Assembly (NCBI RefSeq): GCF_963676685.1
Contig: NC_092347.1
Location: forward strand, 84,816,001-84,880,000
Origin: Mytilus edulis
Taxonomy: Eukaryota
Reading direction: 5' to 3'
DNA length: 64,000 bases
Positions 426 through 61,100 of this stretch are shown piece after piece. Made by a program: the position numbers and the translations under genes. Each line of letters starts with the position of its first letter. Positions within the stretch are counted from its first letter, which is position 1. The notes beneath the pieces were generated by a model. That model did no database searches and was not told the origin of the DNA. It saw only the letters and a list, made by a program, of their open reading frames with translations.

Positions 426-1525
426 ACAGATATTTATACTTACTTAATTTACAATGTGTAATTTAATATAATGATTAAAACAGATAAATCAGTTATAGAG
501 GTACATGTGGTAAAAATTAAAAAAAAATATCATTTCAAATTAAAATAATACATTGTAAAAAATAGGAACTTATCAGGATTGTGTCAGATACTTCTTGATA
601 CCTTTTTTTTTTAAATTAAAAAGTGTTTAAGGACTTTACTACACATTTTTTATAGTAGTTTTATAGATATAAAGATAACATATTTTTCTACACATTGGTC
701 TCCTGTTAACCTTGTTTGTTATCTAGGATGATAAGTTATTATTGTGTCTTTAGTGAAAACAGGTTTAAATGTATGTACAGAAAAATTAATGAGTCCTCGG
801 TAGGATGTAGGACGAGAAACACTAGGCTTTAAACATATATTTTGGTTCTTCTGTGACTAACTATGGAAGTAAGATTAGTCTTTACATTTAAACATTGTTT
901 TAAATTTGTATACATTTTACAGTAGAATTTGTACAACTGTGGTTCCAATTACTTGTCATTTTTCATTCAGCACTGTCAAAGTCAGAGTGTCGCTCCAATA
1001 GACTCAATGTTACAGTAAAAAAAAAAAACAATCAAAACTAAAAACAAAATTCCTACCTACATGTACAATGTACCTATCAAAGAGTACCCTAACTTTTTTA
1101 AATGTAACTGGAAATGCACATACTATTTTATTTGGCCCTAATTTGGTCCTCATGTGCAAAAAGTGTCAATTTTGACGTTTTTATGTTATTTTTCTCGACC
1201 AGGAGGTAAGAGGAATGCTAATAGATGCATCCAGCTATTGTTTAGATGTAGAGTGGACCCCAGTGAACACATTTATCACAACAGTTGTTAGATTAGAGTG
1301 AAACTGATCTGGGTAAATCAGTCTAAAAAAGGTCGTTTGCACCAAAATTCTAAAAAATTCTGATTTCAGACCTCGAAGGTAAGCCCACCACTCAAAAAAA
1401 ACAACACTTTGGTCTGATTTCAATTTTCCAAGTTTGTATTTGAGCTCAAAATGAACTTTAAAAGTGAGAAAGATGACAATTAATTGTGCAAGATTGAGGA
1501 AACATGCATACACTTCCAATTAAAT

Positions 1526-3389: not shown

Positions 3390-4699
3390 TAAATGGCATG
3401 ACGTTGACCTCAAAATGTTTGGAGCGTGCCAAATAACAGTGCTTTGGGTGTGGCCATAATATTACGGCCCTCGCATGGTAAGGGTTAATTTTTGCTCAAA
3501 TTTCATTAACAGATTAAAAGAGAAGAAAATAATATACACTGCAATTGGTATATATCTCAGTTTACATCAAATAATTTGTGACCTGGTATATTCTACATGA
3601 ATTAAATTATATTATTCTATTTACTGGATATTCCTGAACTGTACATCTTGATCTTGATATGGTTACACAACACATCAGACAGACATTTAAAATGTTATAA
3701 GCATTGTGCACCCATCTAAAAGCAATACATTTGTATATCCAAATGCCCCTAGCTCACAATATCTCTTGTTGAAAAATGTCCAGTGGTGCTCATTGAGATC
3801 CAGTTCTTAAAAGTATTTGTGATACCGATAAAACTAAATTTGAGTGATTCTCTTGATCTGGTTGGTATCCAATAAAATAATCAAATTATACCTATCGCCA
3901 AATCATATACATTTATCATACATCAAATGTAATTTGTATACTGTTTATGCTTTTTTAATGGAAATTGTGATGTCACAATCAATCTAATAAACACAATAAA
4001 TGTAGATTTTTGGGTTTACTACACAAAGATATCATAAAATATCAGCCGTGAGCCACAATGTGAACTTTTTGGGGTGAGTGAGCACAGCAAAAGAGCTTAA
4101 AAGCTTCAAGTTGTGGAGCATACACAAAACCAAATTCATCTGTTTATCGTATTATTACCGTCTAACTCTTTTTTCCTTCTCTAAGAAAGTTTTATGCTTG
4201 ACAGAAACAAGCTTAATTACGTCTCCTCTCACATTGAAACGTCGCTGATAACTTCTGCTTAGATGTCATTGTGACTTCGCTGATTATGCCTGGTCTCAAA
4301 CTCAAAGCTGTGATACAAGAATAACTGATCACTGATTGAAGGTGCAGGGAAGAAGATAACCAATAATACAAGGATATGCAGGGAATAGGTGATGTTTAAA
4401 GTATATTAAATAAATGTTTAATCGTTCTAAAAAACGCATGAAATATTTGCCACTGGACTTCAAGCAATCTAGTATGTTTGAAAATAGTGATTGTAATTAT
4501 TCTGCTCATTCTAGATTGGCAAACAAAAATATATACATGTGTTTGTTTATATGTGTACATATTTGTTATTGAAGCATCTTACTTCTGTTCAATCTTTTTA
4601 CTGTTTTAATGATTCAAACTTGTTGTTTCCTGAATCGTGCATGTGAAATATTTCAGAAGCGGATGTAAACAAAAATAATCCAAGTTGTTGAAGTTACAC

Positions 4700-18556: not shown

Positions 18557-20450
18557 ATGAAACATGAAACATGAAACAAACATGAAAACTTAATTAAACG
18601 CCTATTTCTACATATACAATATGTATTCAATGGCGTTGTACATAAATGACATATAAAATACAAAAATACTAAACAAAAATACAATATGTATGTACAATAC
18701 CAAAAATTGAAAATTTATACTGTGATACACAAGAAAAAAGTCAGAAAAGTTCAAAATAATTTTGGAAATACAATGTTTTCAACCGACATTTAAAAATATC
18801 CAAAGATTCAGAGTTTCTTACATTTGTACCTAGTTCATTCCACAATTTTGGCCCAGTAGTACTAAAGCTTCTATCTGAAAAAGTTTTCTTTTTGTTATAT
18901 GGGACTGCATAACAACCAATAGATGACTCTGACGACCTTAATGAACGTTTCGACACTTGAGGATTTATCAAATTGATCAAATAAGACGGTGCATTACCTA
19001 CATGACAGTTGTACATGTATGTTAAGATTTTAAATGTAATTCTGGCTTTGATCGGAAGCCAGTGTAAGTCAAACAATGCCTGCTTGGCACTGTCATACTT
19101 AGAACGGTTTAACACAAGTTTGGCACACATATTCTGTATACGTTGCAATTTATATAAATCAGTTTGTGAAACTCCAAAAAGTATAACATTGCAATAATCT
19201 AAATGTGAAATAACCAAAGATAAGACCAAAGTTTCAGTTGCTTCTTTCGATAGATAGGATCTTATGCACTTTATTTTGTAGTAGTTCATCATTGCTGTCT
19301 TACATTTTTTAGTAATATGGTCTTTGAAGTTTAGAGTCTCATCCAGAAAAGCTCCTAAGTACCGTATACATGTTTTTGATTTTATAACATCTCCACAAAT
19401 GATTATTTCTTTTGTCTGACATTTAGAGAGTTGTTGTCGACTGCCAAAGAGAATAAACTCTGTTTTCGCATTGTTCATTTTTAGTTTGTTACTGTTCATC
19501 CAGGTGTTTATAAGAACAGCGCAGTCCTGTAAGTCACGAATTGCATCCATCTCATTCGTTAATGTTGGCACGAAACGTTTATTAGCAGTATGGTCGTCGG
19601 CAAATCCGTACACAGTAATAGATGGTGGAATAATGTCGAATAGGGTTCCGGCGTAGACTAAATAAAGCCAGGGACCTAAGCAACTTCCCTGTGGTACGCT
19701 ACACTCAAGTTGTCGCTCTGATGATGTTGTAGAGCTGACATTTACACGACAGCTTCGAGGTCTCAAGTAGGAATCGATCCATTTAAGTGCGGTTCCATTT
19801 ACACCGTACTGATATTCGAGTACATTTATCAAAATACTATGATCTACAGTATCGAATGCTGCACTTAAATCAACGGCGATCATAGCGGTGACTTCTTGAT
19901 GCTCCATCCCATCGAGTATGTCATTAACGAGTCGTAGAAGGGCCGATTCGCACGAATGGAATTGACGATACGCAGATTGGTTTGTAGGAAGGAGATCATG
20001 ATCTTTCACGTGTTCATTCAGTCTATATAGCGCACATTTTTCAATTAATTTAGACAGGAAAGACAAGTTGCTTACTGGTCTATAATTTGAGTAAATTAGT
20101 TCAAGACCAGCCTTTTTCAGCAGAGGCCTGACTACCGCTTGCTTCCATCTTAATGGGAAGACGCCTTGACTAAGAGACAAGTTAACTAACTTTGTGATAA
20201 CAGGCAACAATTCACTAAGGAACGATTTAAGTACTTTCGTAGGCAAAATGTCAAGTTCGCATGATTTACATTGCAATTTATTTATGATGGTCTTAACTTC
20301 GTCTTCTGATAGATTTTTAAAAGATGTAAATAACGGAACGTCTTTGAACAATGGTTTGTAATCTTTCATAAACTTGTCTTCAAAATTACTCTCTGAAACT
20401 GCTCATTAAACTGAAGCCAAAGTTTGTCTACTTCATCTATAAAGTTTGTG
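18557..20450 (-). mobile_element. 5'-truncated L2/CR1-group LINE (5' boundary approximate)
   Basis: RT ORF followed by a 3'UTR ending in a (TTTCATG)n-type microsatellite tail at about 18557-18590. Confidence 0.85.
18741..20369 (-). CDS. Non-LTR retrotransposon reverse transcriptase (L2/CR1 group), 542 aa, endonuclease domain absent
   Basis: Motifs YRPVSNLSFLSKLIEK, QSAYRQFHSCESAL, DLSAAFDTVDH, VPQGSCLGP, FADD, RYLG, LHWLPI. Confidence 0.93.
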   Translation of the reverse strand: MKDYKPLFKDVPLFTSFKNLSEDEVKTIINKLQCKSCELDILPTKVLKSFLSELLPVITKLVNLSLSQGVFPLRWKQAVVRPLLKKAGLELIYSNYRPVSNLSFLSKLIEKCALYRLNEHVKDHDLLPTNQSAYRQFHSCESALLRLVNDILDGMEHQEVTAMIAVDLSAAFDTVDHSILINVLEYQYGVNGTALKWIDSYLRPRSCRVNVSSTTSSERQLECSVPQGSCLGPWLYLVYAGTLFDIIPPSITVYGFADDHTANKRFVPTLTNEMDAIRDLQDCAVLINTWMNSNKLKMNNAKTEFILFGSRQQLSKCQTKEIIICGDVIKSKTCIRYLGAFLDETLNFKDHITKKCKTAMMNYYKIKCIRSYLSKEATETLVLSLVISHLDYCNVILFGVSQTDLYKLQRIQNMCAKLVLNRSKYDSAKQALFDLHWLPIKARITFKILTYMYNCHVGNAPSYLINLINPQVSKRSLRSSESSIGCYAVPYNKKKTFSDRSFSTTGPKLWNELGTNVRNSESLDIFKCRLKTLYFQNYFELF

Positions 20451-20451
20451 A

Positions 20452-23200
20452 TTTTTATACGCCCGGGACGGGACGTATTATGGTATACCGTTGTCCGTCC
20501 GTCCATCTGTCCGTCCGTCCGTCTGTCCGTCCGTCGTCCACACTTCGGACAATAACTCAAAAACACCTACACCAATTTCCATGAAACTTAAGTGAATTGT
20601 TTATATCTATTGACGTAAGCTCCCTTTCGTTTTTTTTTAATTTCAGATTTTAAGTTTTGGATTTATGGGGCTTTATTCATAAAAAAGGGGGGATTTTCAA
20701 CACTTCGGACAATAACTCAAAAAGGCTTTCACCAATGTCCATGAAACTTTGGTGAATTGTTTATATCTATTGATGTAAGCTCCCTTTCGTTTTTTTTTAA
20801 TTTCAGATTTTAAGTTTTGGATTTATGGGGCTTTATTCATAAAAAAGGGGGGATTTTCAACACTTCGGACAATAACTCAAAAAGGCTTTCACCAATGTCC
20901 ATGAAACTTTGGTGAATTGTTTATATCTATTGATGTAAGCTCCCTTTCGTTTTTTTTTAATTTCAGATTTTAAGTTTTGGATTTATGGGGCTTTATTCAT
21001 AAAAAAGGGGGGATTTTCAACACTTCGGACAATAACTCAAAAAGGCTTTCACCAATGTCCATGAAACTTTGGTGAATTGTTTATATCTATTGATGTAAGC
21101 TCCCTTTCGTTTTTTTTTAATTTCAGATTTTAAGTTTTGGATTTATGGGGCTTTATTCATAAAAAAGGGGGGATTTTCAACTTTTTGGACAATAACTCAA
21201 AAAGGCTTTCACCAATGTCCATGAAACTTTGGTGAATTGTTTATATCTATTGATGTAAGCTCCCTTTCGTTTTTTTTTAATTTCAGATTTTAAGTTTTGG
21301 ATTTATGGGGCTTTATTCATAAAAAAGGGGGGATTTTCAACACTTCGGACAATAACTCAAAAAGGCTTTCACCAATGTCCATGAAACTTTGGTGAATTGT
21401 TTATATCTATTGATGTAAGCTCCCTTTCGTTTTTTTTTAATTTCAGATTTTAAGTTTTGGATTTATGGGGCTTTATTCATAAAAAAGGGGGGATTTTCAA
21501 CACTTCGGACAATAACTCAAAAAGGCTTTCACCAATGTCCATGAAACTTTGGTGAATTGTTTATATCTATTGATGTAAGCTCCCTTTCGTTTTTTTTTAA
21601 TTTCAGATTTTAAGTTTTGGATTTATGGGGCTTTATTCATAAAAAAGGGGGGATTTTCAACACTTTGGACAATAACTCAAAAAGGCTTTCACCAATGTCC
21701 ATGAAACTTTGGTGAATTGTTTATATCTATTGATGTAAGCTCCCTTTCGTTTTTTTTTTAATTTCAGATTTTAAGTTTTGGATTTATGGGGCTTTATTCA
21801 TAAAAAAGGGGGGATTTTCAACACTTTGAACAATAACTCAAAAAGGCTTTCACCAATGTCCATGAAACTTTGGTGAATTGTTTATATCTATTGATGTAAG
21901 CTCCCTTTCGTTTTTTTTTAATTTCAGATTTTAAGTTTTGGATTTATGGGGCTTTATTCATAAAAAAGGGGGGATTTTCAACACTTCGGACAATAACTCA
22001 AAAAGGCTTTCACCAATGTCCATGAAACTTTGGTGAATTGTTTATATCTATTGATGTAAGCTCCCTTTCGTTTTTTTTTAATTTCAGATTTTAAGTTTTG
22101 GATTTATGGGGCTTTATTCATAAAAAAGGGGGGATTTTCAACACTTCGGACAATAACTCAAAAAGGCTTTCACCAATGTCCATGAAACTTTGGTGAATTG
22201 TTTATATCTATTGATGTAAGCTCCCTTTCGTTTTTTTTTAATTTCAGATTTTAAGTTTTGGATTTATGGGGCTTTATTCATAAAAAAGGGGGGATTTTCA
22301 ACACTTTGGACAATAACTCAAAAAGGCTTTCACCAATGTCCATGAAACTTTGGTGAATTGTTTATATCTATTGATGTAAGCTCCCTTTCGTTTTTTTTTA
22401 ATTTCAGATTTTAAGTTTTGGATTTATGGGGCTTTATTCATAAAAAAAGGGTGATTTTTAACACTTCGGACAATAACTCAAAAAGGCTTTCACCAATGTC
22501 CATGAAACTTTGGTGAATTGTTTATATTTATTGATGTAAGCTCCCTTTCAATTTTTATAAATTTCAGATTTTAAGTTTTGGATTTATGGGGCTTTATTCA
22601 TAAAAAAAAAGGGTGATTTTTAACACTTCGGACAATAACTCAAAAAGGCTTTCACCAATGTCCATGAAACTTTGGTGAATTGTTTATATCTATTGATGTA
22701 AGCTCCCTTTCAATTTTTATAAATTTCAGATTTTAAGTTTTGGATTTATGGGGCTTTATTCATAAAAAAAGGGTGATTTTTAACACTTCGGACAATAACT
22801 CAAAAAGGCTTTCACCAATGTCCATGAAACTTTGGTGAATTGTTTATATCTATTGATGTAAGCTCCCTTTCAATTTTTATAAATTTCAGATTTTACATTT
22901 CCGTGTTATGAATTTTTATGCTTAAAAAAGGGGGGATTTTTCCAATTTCAGGACAATAACTAACACTTTCACAAAATTTTATGTATGGATGAAAAATTAA
23001 AGACAACAAACTTAGTTAAATTTGAGGTAGCCTTAATAGTGCCAATTTTTTTGTGCATTTTTATTTATTATTTGGGGGGGGGGGGGGGTATTTGACAGGG
23101 CTCACACTATTTCTAGTTGATCATATAAATTCATTTAAAGCATAAAAGACAAGTTAAAAGAGCAACGGGCGTATCATGCGCTAAAGCGCAGCCCTTTATT
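20452..23200 (+). mobile_element. Helentron-associated non-autonomous element (HINE/DINE-1-like) carrying a satellite array
   Basis: T-run start, subterminal IR ATACGCCCG (20457-65)/CGGGCGTAT (23166-74), (GTCC)n microsatellite, central tandem array, 3' hairpin TGCGCT-AA-AGCGCA (23177-90). Confidence 0.88.
20541..22920. repeat. 160-bp satellite, ~15 near-identical copies
   Basis: CACTTCGGACAATAACTCAAAA... recurs every 160-162 bp. Confidence 0.97.
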
Positions 23201-27423: not shown

Positions 27424-28077
27424 AATTTTACTATTCTTTTGAAAACAGGAGAAATAAATAGCAAACTAGTAACACAAACATATACGCTACAAATAGTTAT
27501 GTCTACCCTCACAAGAATATATCCCCAATAGGTACATGGTGTTATATAGCAGATGAAGATCTAAAACACTTACTTTTTTTCACGCAGTAAACCTTAGCAT
27601 ACACATAAAAATTACCTCCAGAAAATAAAATCATAACTGGACAATGTAAAGAATGGGTTCTATCATAATTTGGTTGACTGTGACATTTGTATACAAATTG
27701 TGATGGACTGTACCCACAAAAGCATTATCTATGGACTCCATATGAAGCAACAACAATGCATAGAGTTAGAAAAAACATTAAACGACTGCTCTGCTAAGAC
27801 ATGCATGCATACCAGCAGAATGCAATGTCTTCTTTTTTATACCAGTAGAATGCAATGTCTCTGCTTTGACCAATTCCATCCTGTTAAAAGTTGAAGTCAT
27901 CACCCGACTAGTAAGTCTAGATTACTTAGTAAAGATCTATTGACATATGTTTTAGATAACAGAACGACCATGCGTAGAGGTCTTTTTTTTTGTGGATTTG
28001 TGCCCAAATTTTTTCAAAGATTGTTTTCAGTTCTGATACATCAAAGCCTATAAACCTGTCTATCGCTACTAGGACTC

Positions 28078-28387
28078 TGTCCTGAATTGACAATTCTGAG
28101 GTATCACCAAATATAAGTGAACTGCAGCAGACAGAACGTCTGTTCACATCAAAATCTAGGTGTGCTCTGCCTAACCACTTTACCTGTATGAAAACCATGT
28201 GCTACTTGTCACATGATTTTTACCTGGCGCGTAAATCAATGAGTGGGGTGCCAATCAGGGTGCAATTTATACATACCTTTACAAACCATGAAAATAAGAT
28301 AGTGAGCTGCCTTTCATGAATTACAATTTATGAACAATAAGCAAATAATTAATAAAAGATAAAAATCACATAATGAAGTTCGTCACA
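28078..28387 (-). repeat. 3' LTR
   Basis: Matches 32106-32415; preceded on minus strand by the polypurine tract. Confidence 0.95.
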
Positions 28388-28529
28388 TACGTCCCCCTTC
28401 AAAAGACTAAACTATGATTTAGTCCAGCCAACACCAACGAACTTCAAAACAAAAACAATCTGAAATTAATACCTCAATATATACATAGATACTAGATATA
28501 CACATCAGATGCTAATAACTGCTCAGGGG

Positions 28530-31070
28530 TCAATCTTCGTCACACCTAGAAAGTGCATCTGCTGCTATATTCTGCTTCCCTGGAATATGTGTAATCGTGT
28601 ACCTAAACTCCTGTAAAAATAAACTCCAGCGAAGTAAACGCTGGTTGCTGGTTTTCATTCTATAAAGCCACTGCAAAGGTGCATGGTCACTGAAAATAGT
28701 AAATTCACTACCTTCTAAATATACCCTCAATGTTTTTACCGCCCATACACATGATACAATAGCATAACATTCCTTTTCGATGACTGCATAGTTACATTCT
28801 GCACCACTCAGCTTCTTACTGATAAAAATAACTGGATGTCTGCCATCTTCAAATCCCTGCTCCAAAACAGCACTGAGACCAAACTGTGAAGCATCTGTCT
28901 GTAAAATAAATAATAAAATAAATATAATGATAATCCACGCAAAATTGAATACTGGAACCTTCTTCTTTACTAGAACCACTGGTGCTGCATAAGGACTGGT
29001 TGAAGGTTCAATAATACCAGGCTTTAACATCTCAACTTCTACCTTGACTTGGTTTCTAACTGCATACGGCAAAGGGTGTGGTTCCTTGAAAACTGGTTCA
29101 TCTGTCTTGTGAAATGGTTCGTCCATAGGAGGTATACTGACAAGTGGAGCTTTAGAAATTCTACCCTTCTGAACCCCTCTTAGACACTCTGGACATGATC
29201 TACAATACTGAGCAATATCAACAAATATTCTAGGCCAATAGAAATGCTGCATAATCCTATACCTGGTCTTAGTAATACCCAAATGACCTGCTAAAGAAAT
29301 ATCATGACCTAAGGTCAAAACTGTGTTCCGAAACTTCTGAGGGACAACAATTTGACTAATTGCCTCCCTTGACTGTGGCCTAAATATCCTGTAAAGAATA
29401 TCAGATCTTATTGTAAAATAAGACTGTTCATCCGAGTCATCTGTAATATAAGATCTAAGAGTATCTAAAGTATGATCAGACTTCTGTGCATCAATCAGCT
29501 CCTGTCTAGTACAAATCTGAAAATTAGAGTCAAAATTAGTAATTTGAAAAGGCTCTGTTAAAGGTAAATCATCACTATACTTCTCTGTGTTCTTCTCAAT
29601 TCTTATCTCCTCGTCCGACTGTTTAATCTTCTGTGATCTAGTCTTCACTGCTTGACATGGCTTTGAGGATGGATCTAAAACTGGATCTAAAACTGAAAAA
29701 TCTACAGAATCATCACCAACTACAACAGTGTCCTTAACACTAGTAGGTATATAAGTGTTAACATAGTTCCCTATGATGAGCTCTGCGAAAGGAGTATCCA
29801 AAACTAGAGCTAAAACAGTACCTGAAACAAAAGGAGTGTTAATATTAATCCAAACTTCCTTGCATACACGTGAAGAACCATCTGCAAGACAAATACCTCT
29901 ACTCTTACCTGTAAACTTATCTGAGTCAACATATTTTTGGTTTACAAAAACAGTTGAACATCCTGTGTCCCTTAACACTGAAACTGGTTTACTGTTTACC
30001 TTACCTTCAACTATATCTAATCCTGGTACTTCGTTTGTCTTCACCTCGTCACATGACACCCCTGGTAACCGAATTGTCATGCCACCTGCGTATTCGTCAA
30101 CTGTACTACATGGTTCTGTTTGTCCTGGCTTAACAAAACATAATCCTATTTTACCTTGTTGTCTATTCCTTAAAATACAATCTGAAGCAATATGTCCTTT
30201 GCGGTTACACACAAAGCATGTTCTGGTTTCAGGTTTATACTGACCTTGATTGTTCCCGTTCGATTTACTCTGCTGTTTCTTCTGATAATCACTGCTAGAC
30301 TGTGCTTTATCATTACCCTTACCTACATCTTTGTGTGCTGTTTGATAAGCTTCGGCTAGTTCTACTAAAGACCTAAGATCCGGTGGTTTATGCTCCTGAA
30401 TCCACAACCTTAAATCCTTATCACTACTTACTGTCAACTGATCCCTGACCATCAAATCATAGAGCTTATCAAAACTACCATCAATGTCTTCTCTGGCACA
30501 CCAGTGCCTTAAAAAACCCTCTATCCGTACAGAAAATTCCTTGAAAGACTCCCCAGCAAACTGAGCCGAATTCCTGAACTTAGCCCGATATGCCTCAGAA
30601 GTTAACTCATACCGAACCAAAATAGCTGTCTTAATCTTGTCGTATAACCTACTATCCTCATCACTCAACCTGGAATATGCCTCAAGAGCTTTACCACAAA
30701 GAAGGGGAATAAGTCGTAGTGGCCATTCACTCTTTTGAACTTTATGAAGTGTAACAAGTTTTTCAAAAGCTTTTAAAAATACATCTGGATCTTGACCTTC
30801 AGAAAATTTAGGTAACTTAGTCTTAATAGACTCTGACGTTTTAAAACTACTTTTACCTCCTGTTGCCAACTCTTTCTCTCTCAACTCCAGCTCTCTCAGT
30901 CTATAACTATTGTCCATCTCTGCTTTTCTCATATCTCGTTCAGCTGCTCTCTCATCTCTTTCTGCAGCTTGCATCTCTCTATACAAATTTAAACAAGTAG
31001 ATGCCGTTTCACCTTTATCAATCAAGTCTGCCATCCACTGTGGCAACTTTTCTGACGTCATGTTGTACAC
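28530..31070 (-). CDS. Gag-Pol remnant, 846 aa: SCAN-like capsid, CCHC knuckle, aspartic protease, integrase Zn-binding domain, RT N-terminal stub, RNase H; integrase core and RT core deleted
   Basis: YRAKFRN..GESFKEF, CFVCNRKGHIASDC, LRDTGCS, H...GHLG...FYWP...CRSCPEC, GIIEPSTSPYAAPVVLVKK, FILQTDAS...DHAPL...ADALSR; no YxDD and no DDE core. Confidence 0.92.
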   Translation of the reverse strand: MYNMTSEKLPQWMADLIDKGETASTCLNLYREMQAAERDERAAERDMRKAEMDNSYRLRELELREKELATGGKSSFKTSESIKTKLPKFSEGQDPDVFLKAFEKLVTLHKVQKSEWPLRLIPLLCGKALEAYSRLSDEDSRLYDKIKTAILVRYELTSEAYRAKFRNSAQFAGESFKEFSVRIEGFLRHWCAREDIDGSFDKLYDLMVRDQLTVSSDKDLRLWIQEHKPPDLRSLVELAEAYQTAHKDVGKGNDKAQSSSDYQKKQQSKSNGNNQGQYKPETRTCFVCNRKGHIASDCILRNRQQGKIGLCFVKPGQTEPCSTVDEYAGGMTIRLPGVSCDEVKTNEVPGLDIVEGKVNSKPVSVLRDTGCSTVFVNQKYVDSDKFTGKSRGICLADGSSRVCKEVWININTPFVSGTVLALVLDTPFAELIIGNYVNTYIPTSVKDTVVVGDDSVDFSVLDPVLDPSSKPCQAVKTRSQKIKQSDEEIRIEKNTEKYSDDLPLTEPFQITNFDSNFQICTRQELIDAQKSDHTLDTLRSYITDDSDEQSYFTIRSDILYRIFRPQSREAISQIVVPQKFRNTVLTLGHDISLAGHLGITKTRYRIMQHFYWPRIFVDIAQYCRSCPECLRGVQKGRISKAPLVSIPPMDEPFHKTDEPVFKEPHPLPYAVRNQVKVEVEMLKPGIIEPSTSPYAAPVVLVKKKVPVFNFAWIIIIFILLFILQTDASQFGLSAVLEQGFEDGRHPVIFISKKLSGAECNYAVIEKECYAIVSCVWAVKTLRVYLEGSEFTIFSDHAPLQWLYRMKTSNQRLLRWSLFLQEFRYTITHIPGKQNIAADALSRCDED

Positions 31071-31208
31071 AATCTAATCTGATAATGATACAAAAAATAT
31101 ACAAATATTTCGGAGTAAGGTTACCAGAAATAAAATCTCAAAAATAAATCAACAGTGTCTGGTTATACCTTCATAACAAATGAACTCTATGAATGTTGGA
31201 CCTGTGAC

Positions 31209-31227
31209 AATCCCACCGCTGCCACCA
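31209..31227 (-). promoter_or_regulatory. Primer-binding site, tRNA-Leu type (TGGTGGCAGCGGTGGGATT)
   Basis: Complement of the metazoan tRNA-Leu 3' end AATCCCACCGCTGCCACCA (tRNA sequence recalled, not searched). Confidence 0.85.
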
Positions 31228-32105
31228 TTGTAAAGACGTAGGATAATCGGATTGTCAGTTGGCCAACATTCATAGAAACACAAGTAAAAAATAATATTTT
31301 ACTAAAACAAAAATAAACAAAATCAAACAAAACTAAACATAATTATAACATGCAAATGAATACAAATAAACAAAGTAAACAACTGAAATGTTAGTAAGTA
31401 TAAATTGAAACTAATCAGAAAAATGTCTCATCACATCTGCTATCATTCACTCTGTTTGCGGTCAAGATCTAGGACGTCGCTTGGAACGAACATCAAATAC
31501 TTTCAGATTGAATTATTCTAAACTTTTACTTTATTAAACTTTTCACTATTTAATATTGACTTGTGTACACTTGTAACATCAATAAGATGTATGGCTCACT
31601 ATATATTCACTTATAAAATACATTTCACTAATTGCATAGCTTCTATATTGATATGCCACTTCCGTTAAATGAAACACGGACTTCCGGTAAACTAACACCA
31701 ACTTCCGGTGAATATACCACAGCTTCTATAAACGTAAATACGTAATTTCTGCCACATAACATATATATATTGGCCGTTGTATGATACGTTAAACTAAACC
31801 TCACAACTGGTATTTGGGAAGATCTGTGTCAATAAATGGGACGTACGTTGTCTGACCATTTAAATGCTGCCGCTCCAAAACTGAGCATTAAAACTGCATG
31901 GACCAACCCCTGAAACAAATAATTGAACCCCAAATAAATTTATAATCAAATGAAAACAAGATTTCAAACCATAAATCGACCGCCACGTGAATGAAAAGTC
32001 TCCGGGTCTGTTTGATAAGTCAAAATGACAACTAAATGATAACACCTTCAAAAATATAAATGTTCTTACCTGAGCAAATTCATTATATTGTCCTGTGAAT
32101 CTCCA

Positions 32106-32415
32106 TGTCCTGAATTGACAATTCTGAGGTATCACCAAATATAAGTGAACTGCAGCAGACAGAACGTCTGTTCACATCAAAATCTAGGTGTGCTCTGCCT
32201 AACCACTTTACCTGTATGAAAACCATGTGCTACTTGTCACATGATTTTTACCTGGCGCGTAAATCAATGAGTGGGGTGCCAATCAGGGTGCAATTTATAC
32301 ATACCTTTACAAACCATGAAAATAAGATAGTGAGCTGCCTTTCATGAATTACAATTTATGAACAATAAGCAAATAATTAATAAAAGATAAAAATCACATA
32401 ATGAAGTTCGTCACA
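32106..32415 (-). repeat. 5' LTR (repeated portion)
   Basis: Matches 28078-28387. Confidence 0.93.
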
Positions 32416-35400
32416 GACTCCATCCCGAGTGCTATCGTTAATAACCAGATTACTTGTGTACGATAGGAATACAGGAAACAGATTTATGCCGCTGTGAAAT
32501 GTAAAATTACTCATCTTATTTTATTGATGCATCTCCAATATGACAATAATTAAGTTTTATATCATATAAGAATTAGTTACAAGTACATTACATTTTTGTT
32601 CATTTTCCTAAGTTCAATACAAAATGATTGAAATGTACAATCATATGAAAATTTGATTTAAAAACATTTTGATTACGATAATTTAGTCGATTTAAAAACA
32701 ATTCGTTTGATGTTATCTATACTATTTGAACACTGAAATTACTATTTTTTTGTACATCAACAATTACCAAAAAAATTACAGAAAATCATAAATAATGTGT
32801 GCTAGAGTTTACCTATGACAAGTCAAACACTGCTTATGATATTACACTAACTTAGATTTTGAGATGAAACTTAATGTAATTCAGCTTTAAACGGTTGAAA
32901 TTTCACTATGATTATAGGGACAAGGTTTAAATTTTATTGCACAGTTTAATTAAATCAACATACATTTAGAAAAAAAAGAAAAGAGTTTTTATATCAGTCT
33001 TTTGGTTAGAATTACATGTATGGTATTGAATATGTAAGGATTTCGTAATACCTTTTGTATATTTAATGGATCAGTTTTATGTACATAGTTGGTAAACTTT
33101 GCTATTTATAATTTGAAACGATTGTTTGAAGGTAACATTTCATAATTCGATGAAATTAAAAAAGCCTTACTTAAAATAATGTTTTGCTCAAATGAAGCTT
33201 TTTAACTTATTTTCCCATCATGAAACCAATGTTTGTAATTTTTTTGTACCCTTTTAAGATAAGAAGATGTGGTATAATTGACAATTATACATCTTTCCAC
33301 CAGAGTCTAAATGAGCAATTATAGGTCACATTAAGGCCTAGAACATTTGAGATATCTCATTCTGTTCATTTCAAGTTAAAGAGTAGTTTTTCATTGTTAA
33401 TTTTAAAAAGTAACCTTGAAATATGCTTTAATTAAATTAATAATACCAAGCAGTAAAGTGTAGTCACTATTGACAGATCACAGCAAGGTAGAAGTACAAT
33501 TCCAAAACACCTAGGTATAACAAGAAATGAATAGAAATTATGAAAATAGGACGGACCACTCTCTACGGCATGTATGGAGAAAAAAAAAATAAAAAAAAAA
33601 AACTCTAAGGGAAATTCAAAACGTTAAGTGTCAATTAAAAAAAAGAAATGGAACCAAATGGAAAACTAAAGGCCATTACAGGGCCTACACAGTCAGGTAG
33701 CTAACACAGCAGTCTACACTTTAATTGGGACAGCACCAATCCGTTTGACAATAGACCAAAATACGCTATCTTTTTGAATGACCATGATAAGAACCAACTT
33801 ATCGTTAGACTTCCAAATCCCATAGCGTCAACTTGCAACTGAGAATACTAGTCCAACAAACAGACATTGAAATACCCCCAAATACAAGAAAAACCATCCT
33901 TTGTGTCTCATAAAGTCTGGCAATGAACAGGAAACAAGCCAATTAATTTGAAACCAGGAGAAAATAAGTAGCAAACTATTAACAAAAACATATTGCCTAC
34001 ACATAGTTAAGTCTAGACACAATAAGAATATATCTTCAAAAAGATACATTTTATAATACAGCAGATGAAGATTTAGATTTTTTCACGCAGAAGACCTAAG
34101 CATAAACGTGAAAGTTACCCCCAGAAAAAAAATCATACCTGGAAAACTTAAAGAATGGGCTCTATCATAATGTGGTTGACTGTGACATGCTGACATGCTT
34201 ATACAATTTGTGATGAACTGTATTCACAAAAGTATAATTCAAAACTATTGACTCCATATAAAGCAACAACACTACGTAGAGTTAGAAAACTTTACACGGC
34301 TGTTCTGCTAACATGCATGCATACCAACAGGTTGAAACAGATGGGGTTAAATTGTGTGAATCCATTGCCATCAGGAAAGTCTACGGCATGGGTTGGATTT
34401 TTCTGCATGTTCTGTTCTTTAGCGTTCGGTTTTGTTTGACCATGGACATATCATACAATTTTAACGCATTATTTTCTTCGATCTGACCAATTCCATTCTG
34501 TAAGGCTGAAGACATCACCCCACGAGTAAGCCTAGATTACTTATGAAGCACTATTGACAGATTTTTTATGATAACAGAATGACCATACGCGCAGAGGTTA
34601 TTTGCTCCTGTCCAAATTATTTCAAAGTTTGTTTTCAGTTATGGTACCTCAAAGCTTATAAACTTTTTTGTAGCTATCAGGAGTCCATCCTGCGTTTCAT
34701 TGTTTTTTTTTTAACAAGAGTATCGATGATCCTTGTGTGTGATAGATGTTACATGCTGGTGGAAATATTTTGTCATTGATGATACATTTGTACTAACGGG
34801 GTTTCTGGACTGAAGTTAACATTAAGGATCATTTATGCTATAGATGGTTGAAGTATTTCAGTTTACTTTTATTTCTTGTTTATTTTGCAGTTTTTATATT
34901 TTTTATTATTAAGCTGTACTGATGTCAAGTAAACATTCTGGTTGTGAGTTAACACTGTTATATGTTAGAATAGCTGCTCAACCATAGCATAGTGGATTGT
35001 GGATTAAAATCCCATTACACCGAGATGTTTCTCTCATAAGATTTTGCTTTGTATGGCTTAGCAGTTGATATGATACCTTGTCACAAATATGTCATATATT
35101 ACCGTTGTCGTCCTATGTTAAACATTGGTCACATGTTATTCAGTGGTATCGTGCTATTATCGCGTTTTGGTCCTGAGTTTGGATTTACATTATTCGGATT
35201 TATAAATCTATAAACTTATTTTTAAGCACCTTGATATTGTTCAGCAATTTTTATCGGAATCTTGTATTTTTTTAGTATAGTGTTTATATGTAGTTTCATT
35301 GTTTTGGTGTTATAGTCTAATGATCTGTAAGATAACAGGTTCGGGCCGTTCCTAACCATGATGAAAAGTCTTTTGATTGCTTCAGTAATTTCTTCGATCC

Positions 35401-52100: not shown

Positions 52101-53214
52101 ATAAATGAAAAATAAATAAATAAATAAAACAAATAAATAAATTTCTAAAAACATAGAATTAATAAATAAACTACAATGAACTCTTTTCATTTACATATAA
52201 TTTTATAGCATGTTTTGGTCAGTGATTCTCTAATATCAATTATTAAAATCTTGAATGTGTTACCAGACTGCCTTAATTTCACTTAAACATGGTAAATTGA
52301 AAATATTTCCTTGTTATATTGATCAGATAGTCATATCTTGACATGGAATTTACAAAAGGAGTGTATAAAATGGGATTTTACAGTTTGTAAAGATTTACGT
52401 CGTTTTATTTTTTAGAGGGCAACAGTGTACTTGTATTACTCTTGTCAGATACATATCACAAAAGTTCATTGACTGTGATACATAAAAATCATGTAATAAA
52501 TATTGGCCTTTAAAATGCGTTAAGAAGTCAAGATTGAAAGAAAATGAATAATACTGTGTAACTCAGTTGGAATTTCATTGAACTTCTTAAAAATAAAGAG
52601 ACATTGGTGTTTGTAGTCCTTTATATGTATTTTGTATTCATTGATAAAAGTTGTAGTTAAAACATAATTTTTTAAAAACTGTTTTGATTTCCTGTTTCAA
52701 AGGGGGCTGTATTATAGTGATTTATAATAAGTCATCATGTTTGTCTGTCTATATATATTATAGATCCCTGCATTCCGTTAATCTTTTTTATTTGTTAGTA
52801 TTTAAACCAACGTAGTAGAATTGAACCTTATCATTGTGCTTAAGGACAAAAGCTGTGTACATTGTAACTTAATATGTTTTTAATGTCAGTTTCATGACTA
52901 TATATTTCAAAACTATGAAATCAATATTATGAAAATAATAAGGGATAAAGGTTTGGCCCATATCATTAGTGTTACCACAAATTACGCATTAAATTGAGGA
53001 AATGAAGTTCTTCCTTAAAAATACTTTTACTACGTAATCACAAAGATTTTTTGGTTTTCATTTGTGGAATGTTTGATTACAGAACTTTTCCTTTTTAAAA
53101 ATCAATTATCTATACAATATCCTTTTAGTAGAAACAATTTCATATTGACCACTTAAAACATTTTTTGTCACACCTGGTCAAAATAGGTAGAAGCAAGACT
53201 TGTCAGTTTATGAT

Positions 53215-53857
53215 GTCAACCCATTAACAGTTGTTAAAGGTTGTGATAAGGTAGTGAGACATGCCTCTGTGTTAACACATTAACAGTTGTTAAAGGTTGT
53301 GATAAGGTAGTGAGACATATCTCTGTGTCAACACATTAACAGTTGTTAAAGATTAATTTTGTTATAAGGTAGTGAGACATGCCTCTGTGTTAACACATTA
53401 ACAGTTGTTAAAGGTTGTAGTAAGGTAGTGAGACATGCCTCTGTGTCAACACATTAACAGTTGTAAAAGATTAATTTTGTTATAAGGTAGTGAGACATGC
53501 CTCTGTGTTAACACATTAACAGTTGTTAAAGGTTGTAGTAAGGTAGTAAGACATGCCTCTGTGTCAACACATTAACAGTTGTTAAAGGTTGTGATAAGTT
53601 AGTGAGACATGCCTCTGTGTTAACAGATTAACAGTTGTTAAAGGTTGTGATAAGGTAGTGAGACATGCCTCTGTGTTAACACATTAACTGTTGTTAAAGA
53701 TTAATTTTGTTATAAGGTAGTGAGACATGCCTCTGTGTTAACACATTAACAGTTGTTAAAGGTTGTAGTAAGGTAGTGAGACATGCCTCTGTGTTTACAC
53801 ATTAACAGTTGTTAAAGGTTGTAGTAAGGTAGTGAGACATGCCTCTGTGTTAACAGT
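53215..53857. repeat. 56/62-bp minisatellite, ~11 copies
   Basis: CATTAACAGTTGTTAAAGGTTGTGATAAGGTAGTGAGACATGCCTCTGTGTTAACA with a 6-bp longer variant interspersed. Confidence 0.95.
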
Positions 53858-55457
53858 TTTTGATTCAGCCATGCTGGAGATGGTACAGATTTCTAAATTG
53901 AAGACATATCATGAAACTAAATATGTATTTATACTAATTGGCTATTTGCAGACACTTCATACACAATTTGATCATTTACTGTCCACTTTTGATATGCTTT
54001 TTTGCTAATTTGGTTAGACCTTTCTGTCAACAGAATATTTGGCAAAGCCTTTTCTGTAAACAGGATATTTGGTCAGGCCTTTTCTGTAAATTTGATATTT
54101 GGTCAGGCCTTTTCTGTAAATTTGATATTTGGTCAGGCCTTTTCTGTAAATAGGATATTTGGTCAGGCCTTTTCTGTAAAAAGGATATTTGGTCAGACCT
54201 TTTCTGAAAACAGGATATTTGGTAAGGCCATTTCTGTGAACAGGATATTTGGTCATGCTTTTTATGAACAGGATATTTTGTCTGTTTGGTCTTCTCACTC
54301 TATGAACAGGATATATATTTTAAAATTAAGAATGAAAATGGGGAATGTGTCAAAGAGACAACAACCTGACCATAGAACAAAAAAGGATATTTGGTCAGCC
54401 TTTTAGTGTTGCCTTTTCTGTAAACGGGATATTTGGTCATGCTTTTTATGAACAGGATATTTTGTCTGTTTGGTCTTCTCACTCTATGAACAGGATATTT
54501 TGTCTGTTTGGTCCTCTCTCTCTCTCTCTCTCTCTGTGGACAGGATATTTTGTCTGTTTGGTCTTGTCTCTCTGTGAACAGGATATTTCTCTGTTTGGTC
54601 TTCTTTCTCTGTGAACAAGATATTTTGTCTGTTTGGTCTTCTCTCTCCGTGAACAGGATATTTTGTCCGTTTGGTCTTCTCACTCTATGAACAGGATATT
54701 TTGTCTGTTTGGTCCTCTCTCTCTGTGAATAGGATATTTTGGCTGTTTGGTCTTCTCTCTCCGTGAACAGAATATTTTGTCTGTTTGGTCTTCTCTCTCT
54801 CTGTGAACAGGATATTTTGTCTGTTTGGTCTTCTCTCTCTGTGAACAGGATATTTTAAAATTGAGAATGAAAATGGGGAATGTGTCAAAGAGACAACAAC
54901 CTGACCATAGAACAAAAAAGGATATTTGGTCAGCCTTTTAGTGTTGCCTTTTCTGTAAACAGGATATTTGGTCATGCTTTTTATGAACAGGATATTTTGT
55001 CTGTTTGGTCTTCTCACTCTATGAACAAGATATTTTAAAATTGAGAATGAAAATGGGGAATGTGTCAAAGAGACAACAACCTGACCATAGAACAAAAAAG
55101 GATATTTGGTCAGCCTTTTAGTGTTGCCTTTTCTGTAAACGGGATATTTGGTCATGCTTTTTATGAACAGGATATTTTGTCTGTTTGGTTCTCTCTCTGT
55201 GAACAGGATATTTTGTCTCTGGTTTTCTCTCTCTGTGAACAGGATATTTTGTCTCTGGTTTTCTCTCTCTGTGAACAGGATATTTTGTTTGTTTGATCTT
55301 CTTTCTGTGAACAGGCTATTTTGTCTCTGGTTTTCTCTCTCTGTGAACAGGATATTTTGTCTGTTTGGTTTTCTCTCTCTGTGAATAGGATATTTTGTCT
55401 GTTTGGTTCTCTCTCTGTGAACAGGATATTTTGTCTCTGGTTTTCTCTCTCTGTGAA

Positions 55458-56534
55458 CAGTGTTCTAGGATTCCCATTACCCGTTACCCGGGGTAAGTGG
55501 ATTAGGACAACGGGTAAGTCATTTTTTAGCCTTTGTCACCCGGTGGTAAGTCAATTTTCAAGTTCGGGGAAGCCGAAAAACTCTTGAAATTTCCCGATCC
55601 TCTTCAATTTTCCCATATCTGCTTTTTATTTTTATTAAATCACGAGAAAAAACTTTGAAAAAAAGATCGAACATTTTGTCGATGTCTATCGGCGCTTTTA
55701 TTCAAGCACTCGTTTACTAGGTGTAATCAAGCGCAAAAGAGACCACATTCTTCTCCTATCATTCTAAAAGTCGGTCACGGTGTCGGTAAAATCGGAAAAT
55801 CCGGATTGATAACTGGTGGTTAAATCGGGACATAAACGATTTTTTTTCTTGTCATCGGAGGAAAATAAACTTACAGTTGCATTTATTATAGCTCTTAATA
55901 AATGACATAGTAATAACTATAACATATTTGTCAAATTTAGTAAGAAATCGTTTTTTTTAAATTTTGTACAAAATTCAATCGTATCCGAATCCAGCTTTGT
56001 TCAGACAAACTTCACAACATATAATTTAAAGCATGTCATAAAAGTTTTTAAATTTAAAATCTTATCCTTAATCATTAATGTTCAGTGAATCAGCCTGAAA
56101 AATATTCAGTATTTTATAAAGAGCATGTCTGATTTTTAAAAAGAGTTGCATGTAAGTCCCTTATTTTTTTTACAGTGGATTATTGGTATGAAAGTCAGTG
56201 AAGTACTGTTATAGTTCAATGTACTTTTCTGGTGGTATAGGTATATAGTTACAATTAAGCCGTTACAATTAAGCCATATATTTCAAATACTTTTCAATAC
56301 ACTTTAGTCATCATTGCTTCATACAAAACATCATTTGACATCACAAAAAAGGGTACTTTCTGAAGCATGAAAAAGGTGCCAGGAAATGGCTAGAATGCAG
56401 GATTTTGCATCATTTACCCCAGACCCCCGGCGTCCGCATTGGTTGGCGGATTTAACTTTTAGATGTGGGTAAGTAATTTTTTTATTGATCTTACCCGTGG
56501 TAAGTCAAGGTGCCAAAAAAATCCTAGAACACTG
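55458..56534. mobile_element. hAT-like MITE inserted in the satellite
   Basis: TIR CAGTGTTCTAGGAT/ATCCTAGAACACTG; flanking duplication TGTGAA (6 bp); GGTAAG subterminal motifs. Confidence 0.85.
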
Positions 56535-57806
56535 TGTGAACAGGATATTTTGTTTGTTTGATCTTCTTTCTGTGAACAGGATATTTTGTCTCTGGTTTTC
56601 TCTCTCTGTGAACAGGATATTTTGTCTGTTTGGTCTTCTCTCTTTCTGTGAACAGGATATTTTGTTTGTTTGATCTTCTTTCTGTGAACAGGATATTTTG
56701 TCTGTTTGGTCTTCTCTCTCTGTGAACAGGATATTTTGTCTGTTTGGTCTTCTCTCTCTGTGAACAGGATATTTGTCTGTTTGATCTTCTTTCTGTGAAC
56801 AGGATATTTTGTCTGTTTGGTATTCTTTCTGTGAACAGGATATTTTGTCTGTTTGGTCTTCTCTCTCTGTGAACAGGATATTTTGTCTGGTCTTCTCTCT
56901 CTGTGAACAGGATATTTTGTCTGTTTGATCTTCTTTCTGTGAACAGGATATTTTGTCTGGTCTTCTCTCTCTGTGAACAGGATATTTGTCTGTTTGGTCT
57001 TCTCTCTCTGTGAACAGGATATATTTTAAAATTGAGAATGAAAATGGGGAATGTGTCAAAGAGACAACAACCTGACCATAGAACAAAAAAGGATACTTGG
57101 TCAGCCTTTTAGTGTTGCCTTTTCTGTAAACAGGATATTTGGTCATGCTTTTTAAGAACAGGATATTTTGTCTGTTTGGTCTTCTCACTCTATGAACAGG
57201 ATATTTTAAAATTGAGAATGAAAATGGGGAATGTGTCAAAGAGACAACAACCTGACCATAGAACAAAAAAGGATATTTGGTCAGCCTTTTAGTGTTGCCT
57301 TTTCTGTAAAAGGGATATTTGGTCATGCTTTTTATGAACAGGATATTTTGTCTGTTTGGTCTTCTCACTCTATGAAGAGGATATTTTGTCTGTTTGGTCC
57401 TCTCTCTCTCTGTGTGGACAGGATATTTTGTCTGTTCGGTCTTGTCTCTCTGTGAACAGGATATTTCTCTGTTTGGTCTTCTTTCTCTGTGAACAAGATA
57501 TTTTGTCTGTTTGGTCTTCTCTCTCCGTGAACAGGATATTTTGTCCGTTTGGTCTTCTCACTCTATGAACAGGATATTTTGTCTGTTTGGTCCTCTCTCT
57601 CTGTGAATAGGATATTTTGGCTGTTTGGTCTTCTCTCTCCGTGAACAGGATATTTTGTCTGTTTGGTCTTCTCTCTCTCTGTGAACAGGATGTTTTGTCT
57701 GTTTGGTCTTCTCTCTCTGTGAATAGAATATTTTGTCTGTTTGGTTCTCTCTCTCTGTGAACAGGAAATTTTGTCTGTTTGGTGTTGTCTCTTTATGAAT
57801 AGGATA

Positions 57807-58131
57807 TTTTTATGCCCCACCTACAATAGTAGAGGGGCATTACGTTTTCTGGTCTGTATGTCTGTTCGTCTGTCCATCCGTCTGTCTGTCTGTTCATTCG
57901 TCCATGCATCCGTTCGTCCCACTTCAGGTTAAAGTTTTTGGTCAAGGTAGTTTTTGGTGAAGTTGAAGTCCAATCAACTTGAAACGTAGTACACATGTTC
58001 CTTATGATATTATCTTACTAATTGTAATGCAAAAATAAGAGTTTTGACCCCAATTTCACAGTCCACTGAACATAGAAAATGATAGTGTGAGTGGGGCATC
58101 TGTGTAAGTAACTGGGGACAAATTCTTGTTT
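57807..58131 (+). mobile_element. Short HINE inserted in the satellite
   Basis: TTTTTATGCCCCAC...GTGGGGCAT subterminal IR, (GTCY)n tract, inserted in a T-run. Confidence 0.75.
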
Positions 58132-61100
58132 CTCTTTGGTTTTCTCTCTGTGAACAGGATTTTTTGTCTGTTTGGTTTTCTCTCTCTGTGAACAGGATTT
58201 TTTGTCTGTTTGGTTTTTCTCTCTCTGTGAACAGGATTTTTTGTCTGTTTGGTTTTCTCTCTCTGTGAACAGGATTTTTTGTCTCTTTGCTTTTCTCTCT
58301 CTGTGAACAGGATATTTTGTCTCTTTGGTTTTCTCTCTCTGTGAACAGGATATTTTGTCTCTGGTTTTCTCTCTGTGTGAACAGGATATTTTGTCTGTTT
58401 CGTCTTCTCACTCTGTGAACAGGATATTTTGTCTGTTTGGTTTTCTCACTCTGTGAACAGGATATTTTGTCTCTTTGGTTTTCTCTCTCTGTGAACAGGA
58501 TATTTTGTCTGTTTGGTCTTCTCTCTTTCTGTGAACTGGATATTTTGTTTGTTTGATCTTCTTTCTGTGAACAGAATATTTTGTCTCTTTGGTTTTCTCT
58601 CTCTGTGAACAGGATATTTTGTCTGGTTGGTCTTCTCTCTTTCTGTGAACAGGATATTTTGTCTGTTTGATCTTCTCTCTCTGTGAACAGGATTTTTTGT
58701 CTTTTTGGTTTTCTCTCTCTGTGAACAGGATTTTTTGTCTGTTTGGTTTTCTCTCTCTGTGAACAGGATATTTTGTCTGTTTGATCTTCTCTTTCTGTGA
58801 ACAGGATATTTTGTGTTTGGTCTTCTCTCTCTGTGAACAGGATATTTTGTCTGTTTGGTCTTGTCTCTCTGTGAACAGGATATTTCTCTGTTGGTCTTCT
58901 CTTTCTGTGAACAGGATATTTTGTCTGTTTGGTCTTGTCTCTCTGTGAACAGGATATTTCTCTGTTGGTCTTCTCTTTCTGTGAACAGGATATTTTGTCT
59001 GTTTGGTCTTCTCTCTCTTTCTGTGAACAGGATATTTTGTCTGTTTGGTTCTCTCTCTCTCTCTGAACAGGATATTTTGTATGTTTGGTCTTCTCTCTCT
59101 CTGTGAATAGGATATTTTGTCTGTTTGGTCCTCTCTCTCTCTGAACAGGATATTTTGTCTGCTTGGTCTTGTCTCTCTGTGAACAGGATATTTCTCTGTT
59201 GGTCTTCTCTTTCTGTGAACAGGATATTTTGTCTGTTTGGTCTTCTCTCTCTGTGAACAGGATATTTTGTCTGTTTGGTCCTCTCTCTCTCTGAACAGGA
59301 TATATTGTCTGTTTGATCTTTTCTCTCTGTGAACAGGATATTTCATTCCTTCATCTTCACTTCTTGAGAATATGATATTTGTCTGTTTGGTCTTCTCTCT
59401 CTGTGAACATGATACTTTTACTAATCCAAATCAATTATTTATGTGTTTACTAATTGTATTAATAACTCATTCAGAAATGAATAATAATAAAAGCTGGAGG
59501 ATATTTGAATTATTAATATTTATTTATTTCGATCAGATTTGTAAACAAAACTCTTTCCTTTTTTTATACCATTGTATATGTTTTGTCCTTGTAATGATAG
59601 ATATCTCTTTAGTATGTTTGATGTGAACAGATTTAATGTACCATATACCATTCAAGCAGACTATAATGGCAGGATAGATATAAAAATGTAAAAGATTGTT
59701 GTAAGTTAGAACCCAAAGTGTCTAGGGATTGTGACAAGAAACAATAAAATTCAGGTTAATTCAGCATTTTGTTTTAATTTCAACTAAATATTGTGGTCAA
59801 GGTTGAAATCTTGTTTAGTACCAAAATTAAACTGTTTATGTGCAATGTACAACCGGTAAAACTATATATTGTGAAAAAAACTGCTGTATACATGTTTCGG
59901 TTGAGAGAAAAACAAATCAGAAGGAGACTTCAACAACATTATCACCCAAAAAATCCTTTGGTGAATAAATAGGTGAAAATATATCTATTACATATATGAA
60001 ATTAAATATACCTACCCATACACTGTAGTGAAGGTACATTTGGGGTGTATTTTACCCATCTATTTGTTTTTAATGGTCAAGTGCACTTATTCATATGATA
60101 ACACTCCATGATAACACTTCATTTTGAATCAAAAAGTTAATACATTTGTAGTTAATGCTCCTCTCTGAGATCAGGAAATGCTGGGATTGGTTTTCTCTAA
60201 ACTGTGTTCTTGTTTGTAATAGTGAAAGTAAGCTTACCGTTCAAATTTTTACCCTCCTATTTATTGCAATTATTACACTTTTGCAATCTTTGATTTCTTT
60301 GAAAGTGGCACATCATGTTGTTTTAGTGAAATAATTTATGAATCTTTAAACAAGTGCTTTCAAATTTTCCTTTATTGTTACTGATGACAAAAATGAGGTC
60401 CAAGTTTGATAGTGAGGATTTTCACTTTTGCTGTTCAGAAGTTATGGTCCTAAATTTATTAGAATTTGGTACTTTTAGGAGTTTCCATGCAACAACTTGA
60501 CAATTGTTGTATTAATTCTTTTCAAATGTTTATATGTTGTTACTGATGATCTAAAATCTAGTTCAATATTTGTGGTTTTCACCATTGCTGTTCAGAGGTT
60601 AATGGTCTTTTTTGATTGGAAAATGGATTTTTATGGCATTTCCATCCTGTTTTAGTTGAAAGCATTCTAATTATCATTTTCAAATATTGATATGTTACTG
60701 ATGACAAAATGAAGATCTAGCATAATATTGTAATCAAAAACACTAGTTGCCATCATTTTGACGGCCTGTTTTCGTTGTTGTGTGATTGGTCAAATTGTAG
60801 TCTAATTCCATTTCAAATTTATTTTCAATATGTAGCACTGTCAAATTGAGTATTCTTAGGTCCATTTTCTTAAAAATTTACACTTTTGTTGTGATTGGAG
60901 AATGTAAGGTACCTTAGATTTTAAAATTTTGTAGGTACTGTCGGTACATGTACTTACTTAGTTTCCAGAGTAACTGGATTCTAACTATTAAATTTAAGCA
61001 ATTAGCTGTACACCTTAACATGTGTTTTTGGAAGCTTTTATGCATGACCACTTTACTGACTTCTGATTTAATTATACTACAATTCCCATTTTATTCTGAT

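Follow-up and report, generated by a model that had tools for sequence, protein, structure and literature searches.

Gmr1-like elements have been described, in the accessible parts of two reports, as Ty3/gypsy retrotransposons with a SCAN-type Gag and an integrase placed upstream of reverse transcriptase (RT) and RNase H (PMC8220671; bioRxiv 10.1101/2025.03.03.638093). Splicing has been described in other retroelements: in HTLV-1 both a splice donor and an acceptor lie within the long terminal repeat (LTR), as shown in vectors according to the available part of that study (bioRxiv 10.1101/2023.01.28.526022), and the accessible portion of PMC12786077 reports that passage of an engineered Ty1 intron reporter via spliced RNA gives intron-less copies and that the natural introns of Ogre and EVADE yield subgenomic RNAs. 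Here, sequence comparison of a locus of Mytilus edulis showed that its primer binding site (PBS) and LTR are arranged in the ordinary way with one damaged end; the new part is a likely intron in the LTR which is repeatedly lost and yet kept.

The window, that is, the whole stretch of 64,000 nucleotides analysed (NC_092347.1, positions 84,816,001 to 84,880,000), contains at 32415..28078 on the minus strand a young and probably Gmr1-like LTR retrotransposon that carries an internal deletion and whose LTR and PBS are of the ordinary kind. It has LTRs bounded by TG...CA, a 5-bp target site duplication (TSD), a PBS by the 5' LTR and a polypurine tract (PPT) by the 3' LTR, as follows.

32416..32420, minus strand, 5' copy of the TSD, GAGTC, read from the sequence
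31229..32415, minus strand, true 5' LTR of 1187 bp, TG...CA; solo LTRs and a sister element share its TTTACA end and have 5-bp TSDs of their own
32106..32415, minus strand, LTR positions 1-310, the sole part repeated in the 3' LTR; ends in CAGGACA, then TGGAGA
31209..31227, minus strand, tRNA-Leu PBS with a 1-nt spacer (31228) to the LTR end; 19/19 against host tRNA-Leu(AAG) plus CCA
28530..31073, minus strand, open frame of 847 aa, with domain matches; 98.4% over 2840 bp to the copy on C7
28392..28400, minus strand, PPT a few bases upstream of the 3' LTR, read from the sequence
28078..28387, minus strand, shortened 3' LTR of 310 bp, ending in ACA and equal to 5' LTR positions 1-310
28073..28077, minus strand, 3' copy of the TSD, GAGTC; in two other samples the flank contigs agree exactly as far as this position

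The 847-aa frame gave matches to a SCAN-type Gag (PF02023, E 1.6e-08, above the cut-off), a zinc knuckle, a protease-like region, an integrase zinc domain (577-632) and, downstream of it, RNase H (722-823). Because no domain match to an integrase core or RT was found in this frame, the window element was taken as internally deleted and non-autonomous, and the C7 copy was found to have the same coding layout and the same internal deletion. The putative Gmr1-like assignment draws on the SCAN domain and on the domain order, which was SCAN, integrase, RT and RNase H in both sister families checked. An abundant young SCAN-Gag family with 605-bp LTRs (L160, L161) is also present in the genome, with long open frames and many copies 98-100% alike; this outgroup lacks both the U5-leader stem and a consensus donor, its PBS is a different one set off from the LTR by 4-5 nt, and all 40 scored of its 769 candidates, a biased sample, had full-length LTRs. 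Elsewhere in the window, a 553-aa frame at 18741-20402 (minus strand) matches RVT_1 (E 4.6e-27) and adjoins a near-perfect 160-bp tandem array of ~15 copies at 20470-23012, and long arrays with units of 30-62 bp, mostly 36-38 bp, and a strong T skew occupy 53158-59430.

The initial annotation of this stretch had described a 310-bp LTR and a tRNA-Leu PBS displaced ~880 bp from it. The 310-bp repeat is real (28078-28387 against 32106-32415, zero mismatches) and so is the PBS at 31209-31227 with TTTACA-A preceding it; TGGAGA after LTR position 310, AATAAA at LTR position 881 and the donor CAG/GTAAGA at 32069 are all present as well. The PBS is however not displaced, since the 878 bases between the repeat and the PBS are LTR sequence and the 1-nt spacer, and a nested insertion at 31229-32105 falls away likewise, this stretch being LTR sequence. 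When the genome was searched with the LTR region, 61 matches were obtained, many of which run from the repeat start through TTTACA. Eleven solo loci were given to the TSD script; both ends were located in eight, a perfect 5-bp TSD was found in seven of these, and at the solo locus L009 the TSD agrees by eye. Furthermore, the sister element on C7 is bounded by LTRs that both measure 1028 bp, with the TSD GCTTC and a PBS 1 nt beyond its 5' LTR. In a sister family at 57% Gag identity the LTRs are 1118 bp long and the PBS is that of the window family, and another with 32% Gag identity has 1334-bp LTRs and a different PBS, which we take to be tRNA-Leu-like, at 2-nt spacing. Relatives with full-length frames showed the same layout, with perfect TSDs in 5/5 elements. 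Thus, because of the TSDs of solo LTRs, the sister elements with long LTRs and the adjacent PBS, the LTR of this family is 1187 bp, its PBS is adjacent and its priming is ordinary.

The comparison of copies and solo LTRs that the initial annotation had proposed gave solo LTRs of 1.0-1.2 kb with TSDs. It had offered two explanations, the first of which combined a true LTR of ~1187 bp with priming of this copy at a cryptic TGG; the solo LTRs and the sister element bear out the length, and for priming at the cryptic TGG we put the probability low. The second, a non-canonical priming or jump mechanism of the whole family, is refuted by the sister element and the intact relatives, whose paired LTRs are long and lie next to a tRNA-Leu PBS. 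The 3' end of host tRNA-Leu(AAG) had 174 genomic matches, and host tRNA genes were seen in long tandem arrays (L031-L060, L087-L092), such as Thr-CGT with Gly-CCC, Lys-TTT with Met, and Leu-AAG. In self-primed elements of the Tf1 type the PBS is complementary to the element's own RNA instead of a tRNA 3' end; this was considered for the window element and rejected, the PBS pairing with host tRNA-Leu plus CCA at 19/19 positions.

The short 3' LTR is a one-off. An LTR match ending at 310 was found once in 29, in the window's own copy; four diverged matches of the window's family (family 1) end between 279 and 320, the ends having been read for part of them, and no second case of a short LTR was found in 30 of 51 family-2 matches or in 30 of 57 family-3 matches and 8 fetched loci. 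Flank contigs from two other samples match the locus exactly up to 28077 and continue with 25 and 453 differing letters. These were read as empty sites because a full-length LTR end would match three bases further, and the TSD is therefore a real target sequence. The remaining two of the four runs either had no coverage of the junction or diverged 28 bases earlier.

Incomplete LTRs of other kinds were also observed. More than 10 copies of the last ~125 nt of the LTR with ATGGT or ATGAT occur at G000:C12 7.4-8.2 Mb and on C23 (L100-L120); they are followed by a shared unrelated sequence and look like a single fragment that was multiplied along with a large segmental repeat. A tandem pair at G000:C3:93.79 Mb (L004/L005), 2.3 kb apart, has LTRs starting at 104 and identical flanks. 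Two family-3 LTR pieces at G000:C9:85.24 Mb (L223) end at 1027 before the same downstream sequence, probably by local duplication after the truncation, and the LTR of one fetched copy of family 4 is truncated.

A deletion, cryptic priming, the use of an internal end by integrase and an assembly error all yield the identical final sequence at this 3' LTR. We lean towards a deletion from ACA to ACA, by which the 3' LTR would have lost 877 bp once and its internal ACA (308-310) would have been joined to the terminal ACA. A template slip as reverse transcription began could have caused it, or an event accompanying or following integration, routes that are indistinguishable by sequence. A single event suffices for it, and these LTRs commonly show one-off deletions, with nine of at least 20 nt in 14 LTR rows. 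The microhomology at position 310 is however minimal (3 nt), as 10 of the 22 internal ACA sites offer more and one offers 7 nt, and the endpoint exactly on the final three LTR bases demands a cause. The deletion also leaves unexplained the TGG downstream of the site and the likeness of the site to a real LTR end, both of which bear on the readings that follow.

It is possible, although we hold it unlikely, that a tRNA, with or without a few copied bases, annealed at ACA/TGG inside the LTR. Such priming would set the right end at 310 with normal integrase processing, and the long 5' LTR would arise via read-through or from a second RNA. TGG follows just two of the 22 internal ACA sites, ACA-TGG resembles the real junction ACA-A-TGG and the 5-bp TSD is perfect. 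The motif CAGGACATGGA at the truncation site (LTR 304-314, 32112-32102 on the minus strand) is also shared with family 2, where it lies ~35 nt upstream of the donor as in family 1; family 3 has ACAATGG ~37 nt upstream of its donor, and CAGGACATGGA could act as a promoter element or supply a short upstream ATG. Against this reading, only the three leading letters agree with the tRNA-Leu PBS, and letters 311-330, identical in 5/5 other copies checked, include none derived from a tRNA. In the host genome, a loose T-arm pattern for a tRNA pairing with TGGAGA gave 896 matches against 1035 in the control. A tighter pattern, defined as a T-arm ending that pairs with 7 letters and one that would miss mitochondrial tRNAs and those with unusual T-arms, gave 32 against 10, with no tRNA gene in the 30 of 32 loci read, where 8-11 of 18 letters pair beyond LTR position 310, 7 of which the pattern itself imposes. 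Scoring in the Rfam tRNA search covered 63 candidates, short of a full tRNA set, and among the loci read no host tRNA gene was found that would make TGGAGA an ordinary PBS, a case the initial annotation had also considered. Priming at this site would furthermore require a start site upstream of 310 and, as we infer, additional rare template switches, and it left no second case among the matches examined in three families.

Improbable too is that a cDNA which was broken or left incomplete at an att-like internal ACA was accepted there by integrase and inserted with its two ends in concert. Position 310 does share 6 of the 7 positions common to both real LTR ends and the 5-bp TSD is clean; but two other sense-strand ACA sites tie with it in this post hoc comparison, and the break would be required within a few bases of the site. 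We give still less credit to an assembly error at a locus that truly has two long LTRs. No contig spanning the 28077/28078 junction was found in the four runs and this is the sole such copy, but the error would need an exact ACA-to-ACA join, and both informative runs could not bridge the junction because they look like empty-site alleles.

The PBS of this element had further been described as presented in a hairpin loop, and the predicted structure and the LTR end next to it were laid out as follows.

31298..31303, minus strand, AGTAAA, candidate poly(A) signal, inferred from its position by comparison with relatives
31249..31276, minus strand, U5 arm of the predicted U5-leader stem, from the fold
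31186..31213, minus strand, leader arm of the predicted stem, overlapping the last 5 PBS letters, from the fold

Both inverted-repeat arms are present, the lower one starting at 31187 with one extra pair that reaches 31186/31276, and the loop placement holds in part, as the last 5 PBS letters form the top of the stem. The stem is predicted to pair approximately the last 47 nt of the LTR with the leader. Its fold gave -43.9 kcal/mol with z = -5.0, and none of 200 shuffles was as good. Duplexes within the families' own sequences were -38.3, -28.9, -20.1 to -24.4 and -15.9 kcal/mol in four families, compared with cross-family duplexes of -24 to -26 kcal/mol between families 1 and 2 and -8 to -12 kcal/mol between families 1 and 3. 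The folding z of families 3 and 4 is modest (-1.5 to -4.1), and the outgroup family with a different PBS showed a duplex of -6.4 kcal/mol, a folding z of +1.1 to -0.5 (7 rows) and no stem. The MAFFT alignment of the hairpins was not structure-true; conservation was read from the predicted folds and from own-versus-cross duplexes, by which the predicted hairpin is co-evolving in four Gmr1-like families, kept despite letter changes. The modelled stem would likely act in the manner of a retroviral U5-leader stem and gate tRNA annealing, and it is no evidence for unusual priming. Family-wide priming guided by structure, in which the LTRs would be 310 bp and the PBS internal, can be dismissed even with a real and conserved hairpin, since long LTRs and an adjoining PBS are found in the solo LTRs and in those two-LTR elements that have kept both ends.

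Near the LTR end, relatives have ATTAAA or AATAAA 75-90 nt before it and a poly(A)-like hexamer is found there in all five families, whereas two sister families lack an equivalent of the AATAAA at LTR position 881. From the position of this hexamer, U5 would hardly exceed the stem arm. Searches for TATA, ETS and Inr motifs of a start site found nothing conserved across the families.

The consensus donor of the LTR at 32069 pairs with TTTCAG/G at 31910, and together they bound a segment of the LTR with the features of an intron.

31910..32069, minus strand, 160-bp GT-AG segment, LTR positions 347-506, CAG/GTAAGA ... TTTCAG/G; missing at 6 other loci of the family

A GT-AG segment was found in 3/3 families examined in depth, with lengths of 160, 154 and 500 bp and a branch-like TTGAT in two of the three; each of these families has its donor, GTAAGA or GTAAGT, at a distance of 828-866 nt from the LTR end. 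Few stretches can still be aligned between the LTRs of families 1 and 2, and both splice sites, donor and acceptor, belong to these. In family 1 the segment is absent at six loci (C7 in both LTRs, L014, L015, L020, L025 and L026) and kept at at least nine; a substitution is found in the intron-less junctions of L014 and L025, and the copy at L026 has diverged. In family 2 the 154-bp segment is absent at four loci and present in at least seven young ones, and in family 3 seven loci lack the 500-bp segment while 18 LTRs in the tree contain it. In all four intron-less elements with two LTRs it is absent from both. The intron-less LTRs of family 1 do not form one clade (AU p = 2e-50), the C7 pair being nested among intron-bearing LTRs with support of 100/99 in a tree that left out L025, L012 and L024, and the losses of family 3 fall in both of its strongly supported subclades. 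The segment was thus lost repeatedly and independently at the splice sites, and intron-bearing copies are still the majority.

These patterns point very strongly to a spliceosomal intron lost via an RNA stage: the segment would be spliced from some RNAs, which would then be reverse-transcribed into the genome. Direct repeats of 4-5 nt at the junctions (TCAGG, CAGG and AGGT in the three families) are what an unspliced segment removed by repeated slips of RT between its end repeats would show, and we regard such slips as improbable. In 14 aligned rows of family 1 and 26 of family 3, 1033-4038 direct-repeat pairs of the junction-repeat length were available and none other was recurrently used, the segment being the only recurrent deletion. 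Slips would thus have to recur at the GT-AG pair alone in three families with segments of three lengths, and the splice sites are conserved although the LTRs of the families are otherwise mostly unalignable. For the spliced intron, the intron-less copies are probably in the main dead ends derived from intron-bearing masters. As the loss of the segment could stem from either LTR copy in the RNA, 5' or 3', it does not place the start site, and no conserved peptide across the splice junction was found by eye.

Since intron-bearing LTRs are the majority despite loss by splicing, we tentatively suggest, from these sequence patterns, that the Gmr1-like lineage may keep a working LTR intron against a one-way ratchet of loss because the element needs it. 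In the boldest form of this proposal the LTR donor would be joined to either of two acceptors. The near acceptor would leave the PBS in place and give rise to intron-less insertions, and an acceptor between the PBS and gag would give a PBS-less mRNA for translation only. A pyrimidine-rich AG is present between the PBS and gag in each of three families (31079-31061 on the minus strand in the window; leaders of L125, L132 and L138), ranks first or second among the candidate acceptors by a crude score with ties, and suggests a second, PBS-removing splice. In family 2 it lies 1 nt upstream of the gag ATG, and splicing to it would bring an LTR ATG into the reading frame of Gag. If the switch between two acceptors were true, the element would have a long R region with its start site within the first 346 bp, and the 310-bp LTR could be a fossil of mispriming.

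In retroviruses, U5-leader or U5-IR stems form between U5 and leader sequence beyond the PBS; reportedly, such stems were treated by Beerens in 2000 and a U5-IR-like structure of Tf1 by Lin and Levin in 1998. A literature search for U5-leader stems in retrotransposons found nothing. The Mytilus stem has in common with these structures a pairing of U5 and leader beyond the PBS, but it is longer and near-perfect (22 bp plus) and covers the PBS 3' end, and unlike Tf1 the Mytilus element is tRNA-primed and not self-primed. With Gmr1-like elements, as far as their accessible descriptions go, the window element shares the SCAN Gag, TG...CA LTRs, 5-bp TSD, PBS and PPT, as well as the domain order, which is seen in part in the window and fully in the sister families. 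It differs from them in that the window copy is without integrase core and RT and has a 3' LTR of 310 bp, and an LTR-internal intron is absent from the accessible parts of the Gmr1-like descriptions (PMC8220671; bioRxiv 10.1101/2025.03.03.638093). A search of the openly accessible literature found no LTR retrotransposon reported to have a natural intron in its LTR together with insertions that lack it.

This likely LTR intron would be a natural counterpart of the intron-loss experiment, a single genome offering LTRs of all ages in pairs with and without the intron, and it raises the question of why a retroelement retains an intron that is removed as it replicates, for which expression, export, escape from silencing and the sorting of mRNA from genomic RNA come into view. 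A further caution is that splicing may have produced subfamilies defined by LTR length, and that LTR-finding tools can go astray where a perfect TSD flanks a short pair of repeats. HTLV-1 is a retrovirus that, like the Mytilus families, has donor and acceptor in the LTR; what the Mytilus families have beyond the available part of its account is integrated intron-less LTR copies, at 17 loci in three families. The introns of Ogre and EVADE sit in the internal region. Compared with Ty1, Ogre and EVADE, as they are described in the accessible text, the likely intron of Mytilus is natural, lies in the LTR and persists despite repeated loss.
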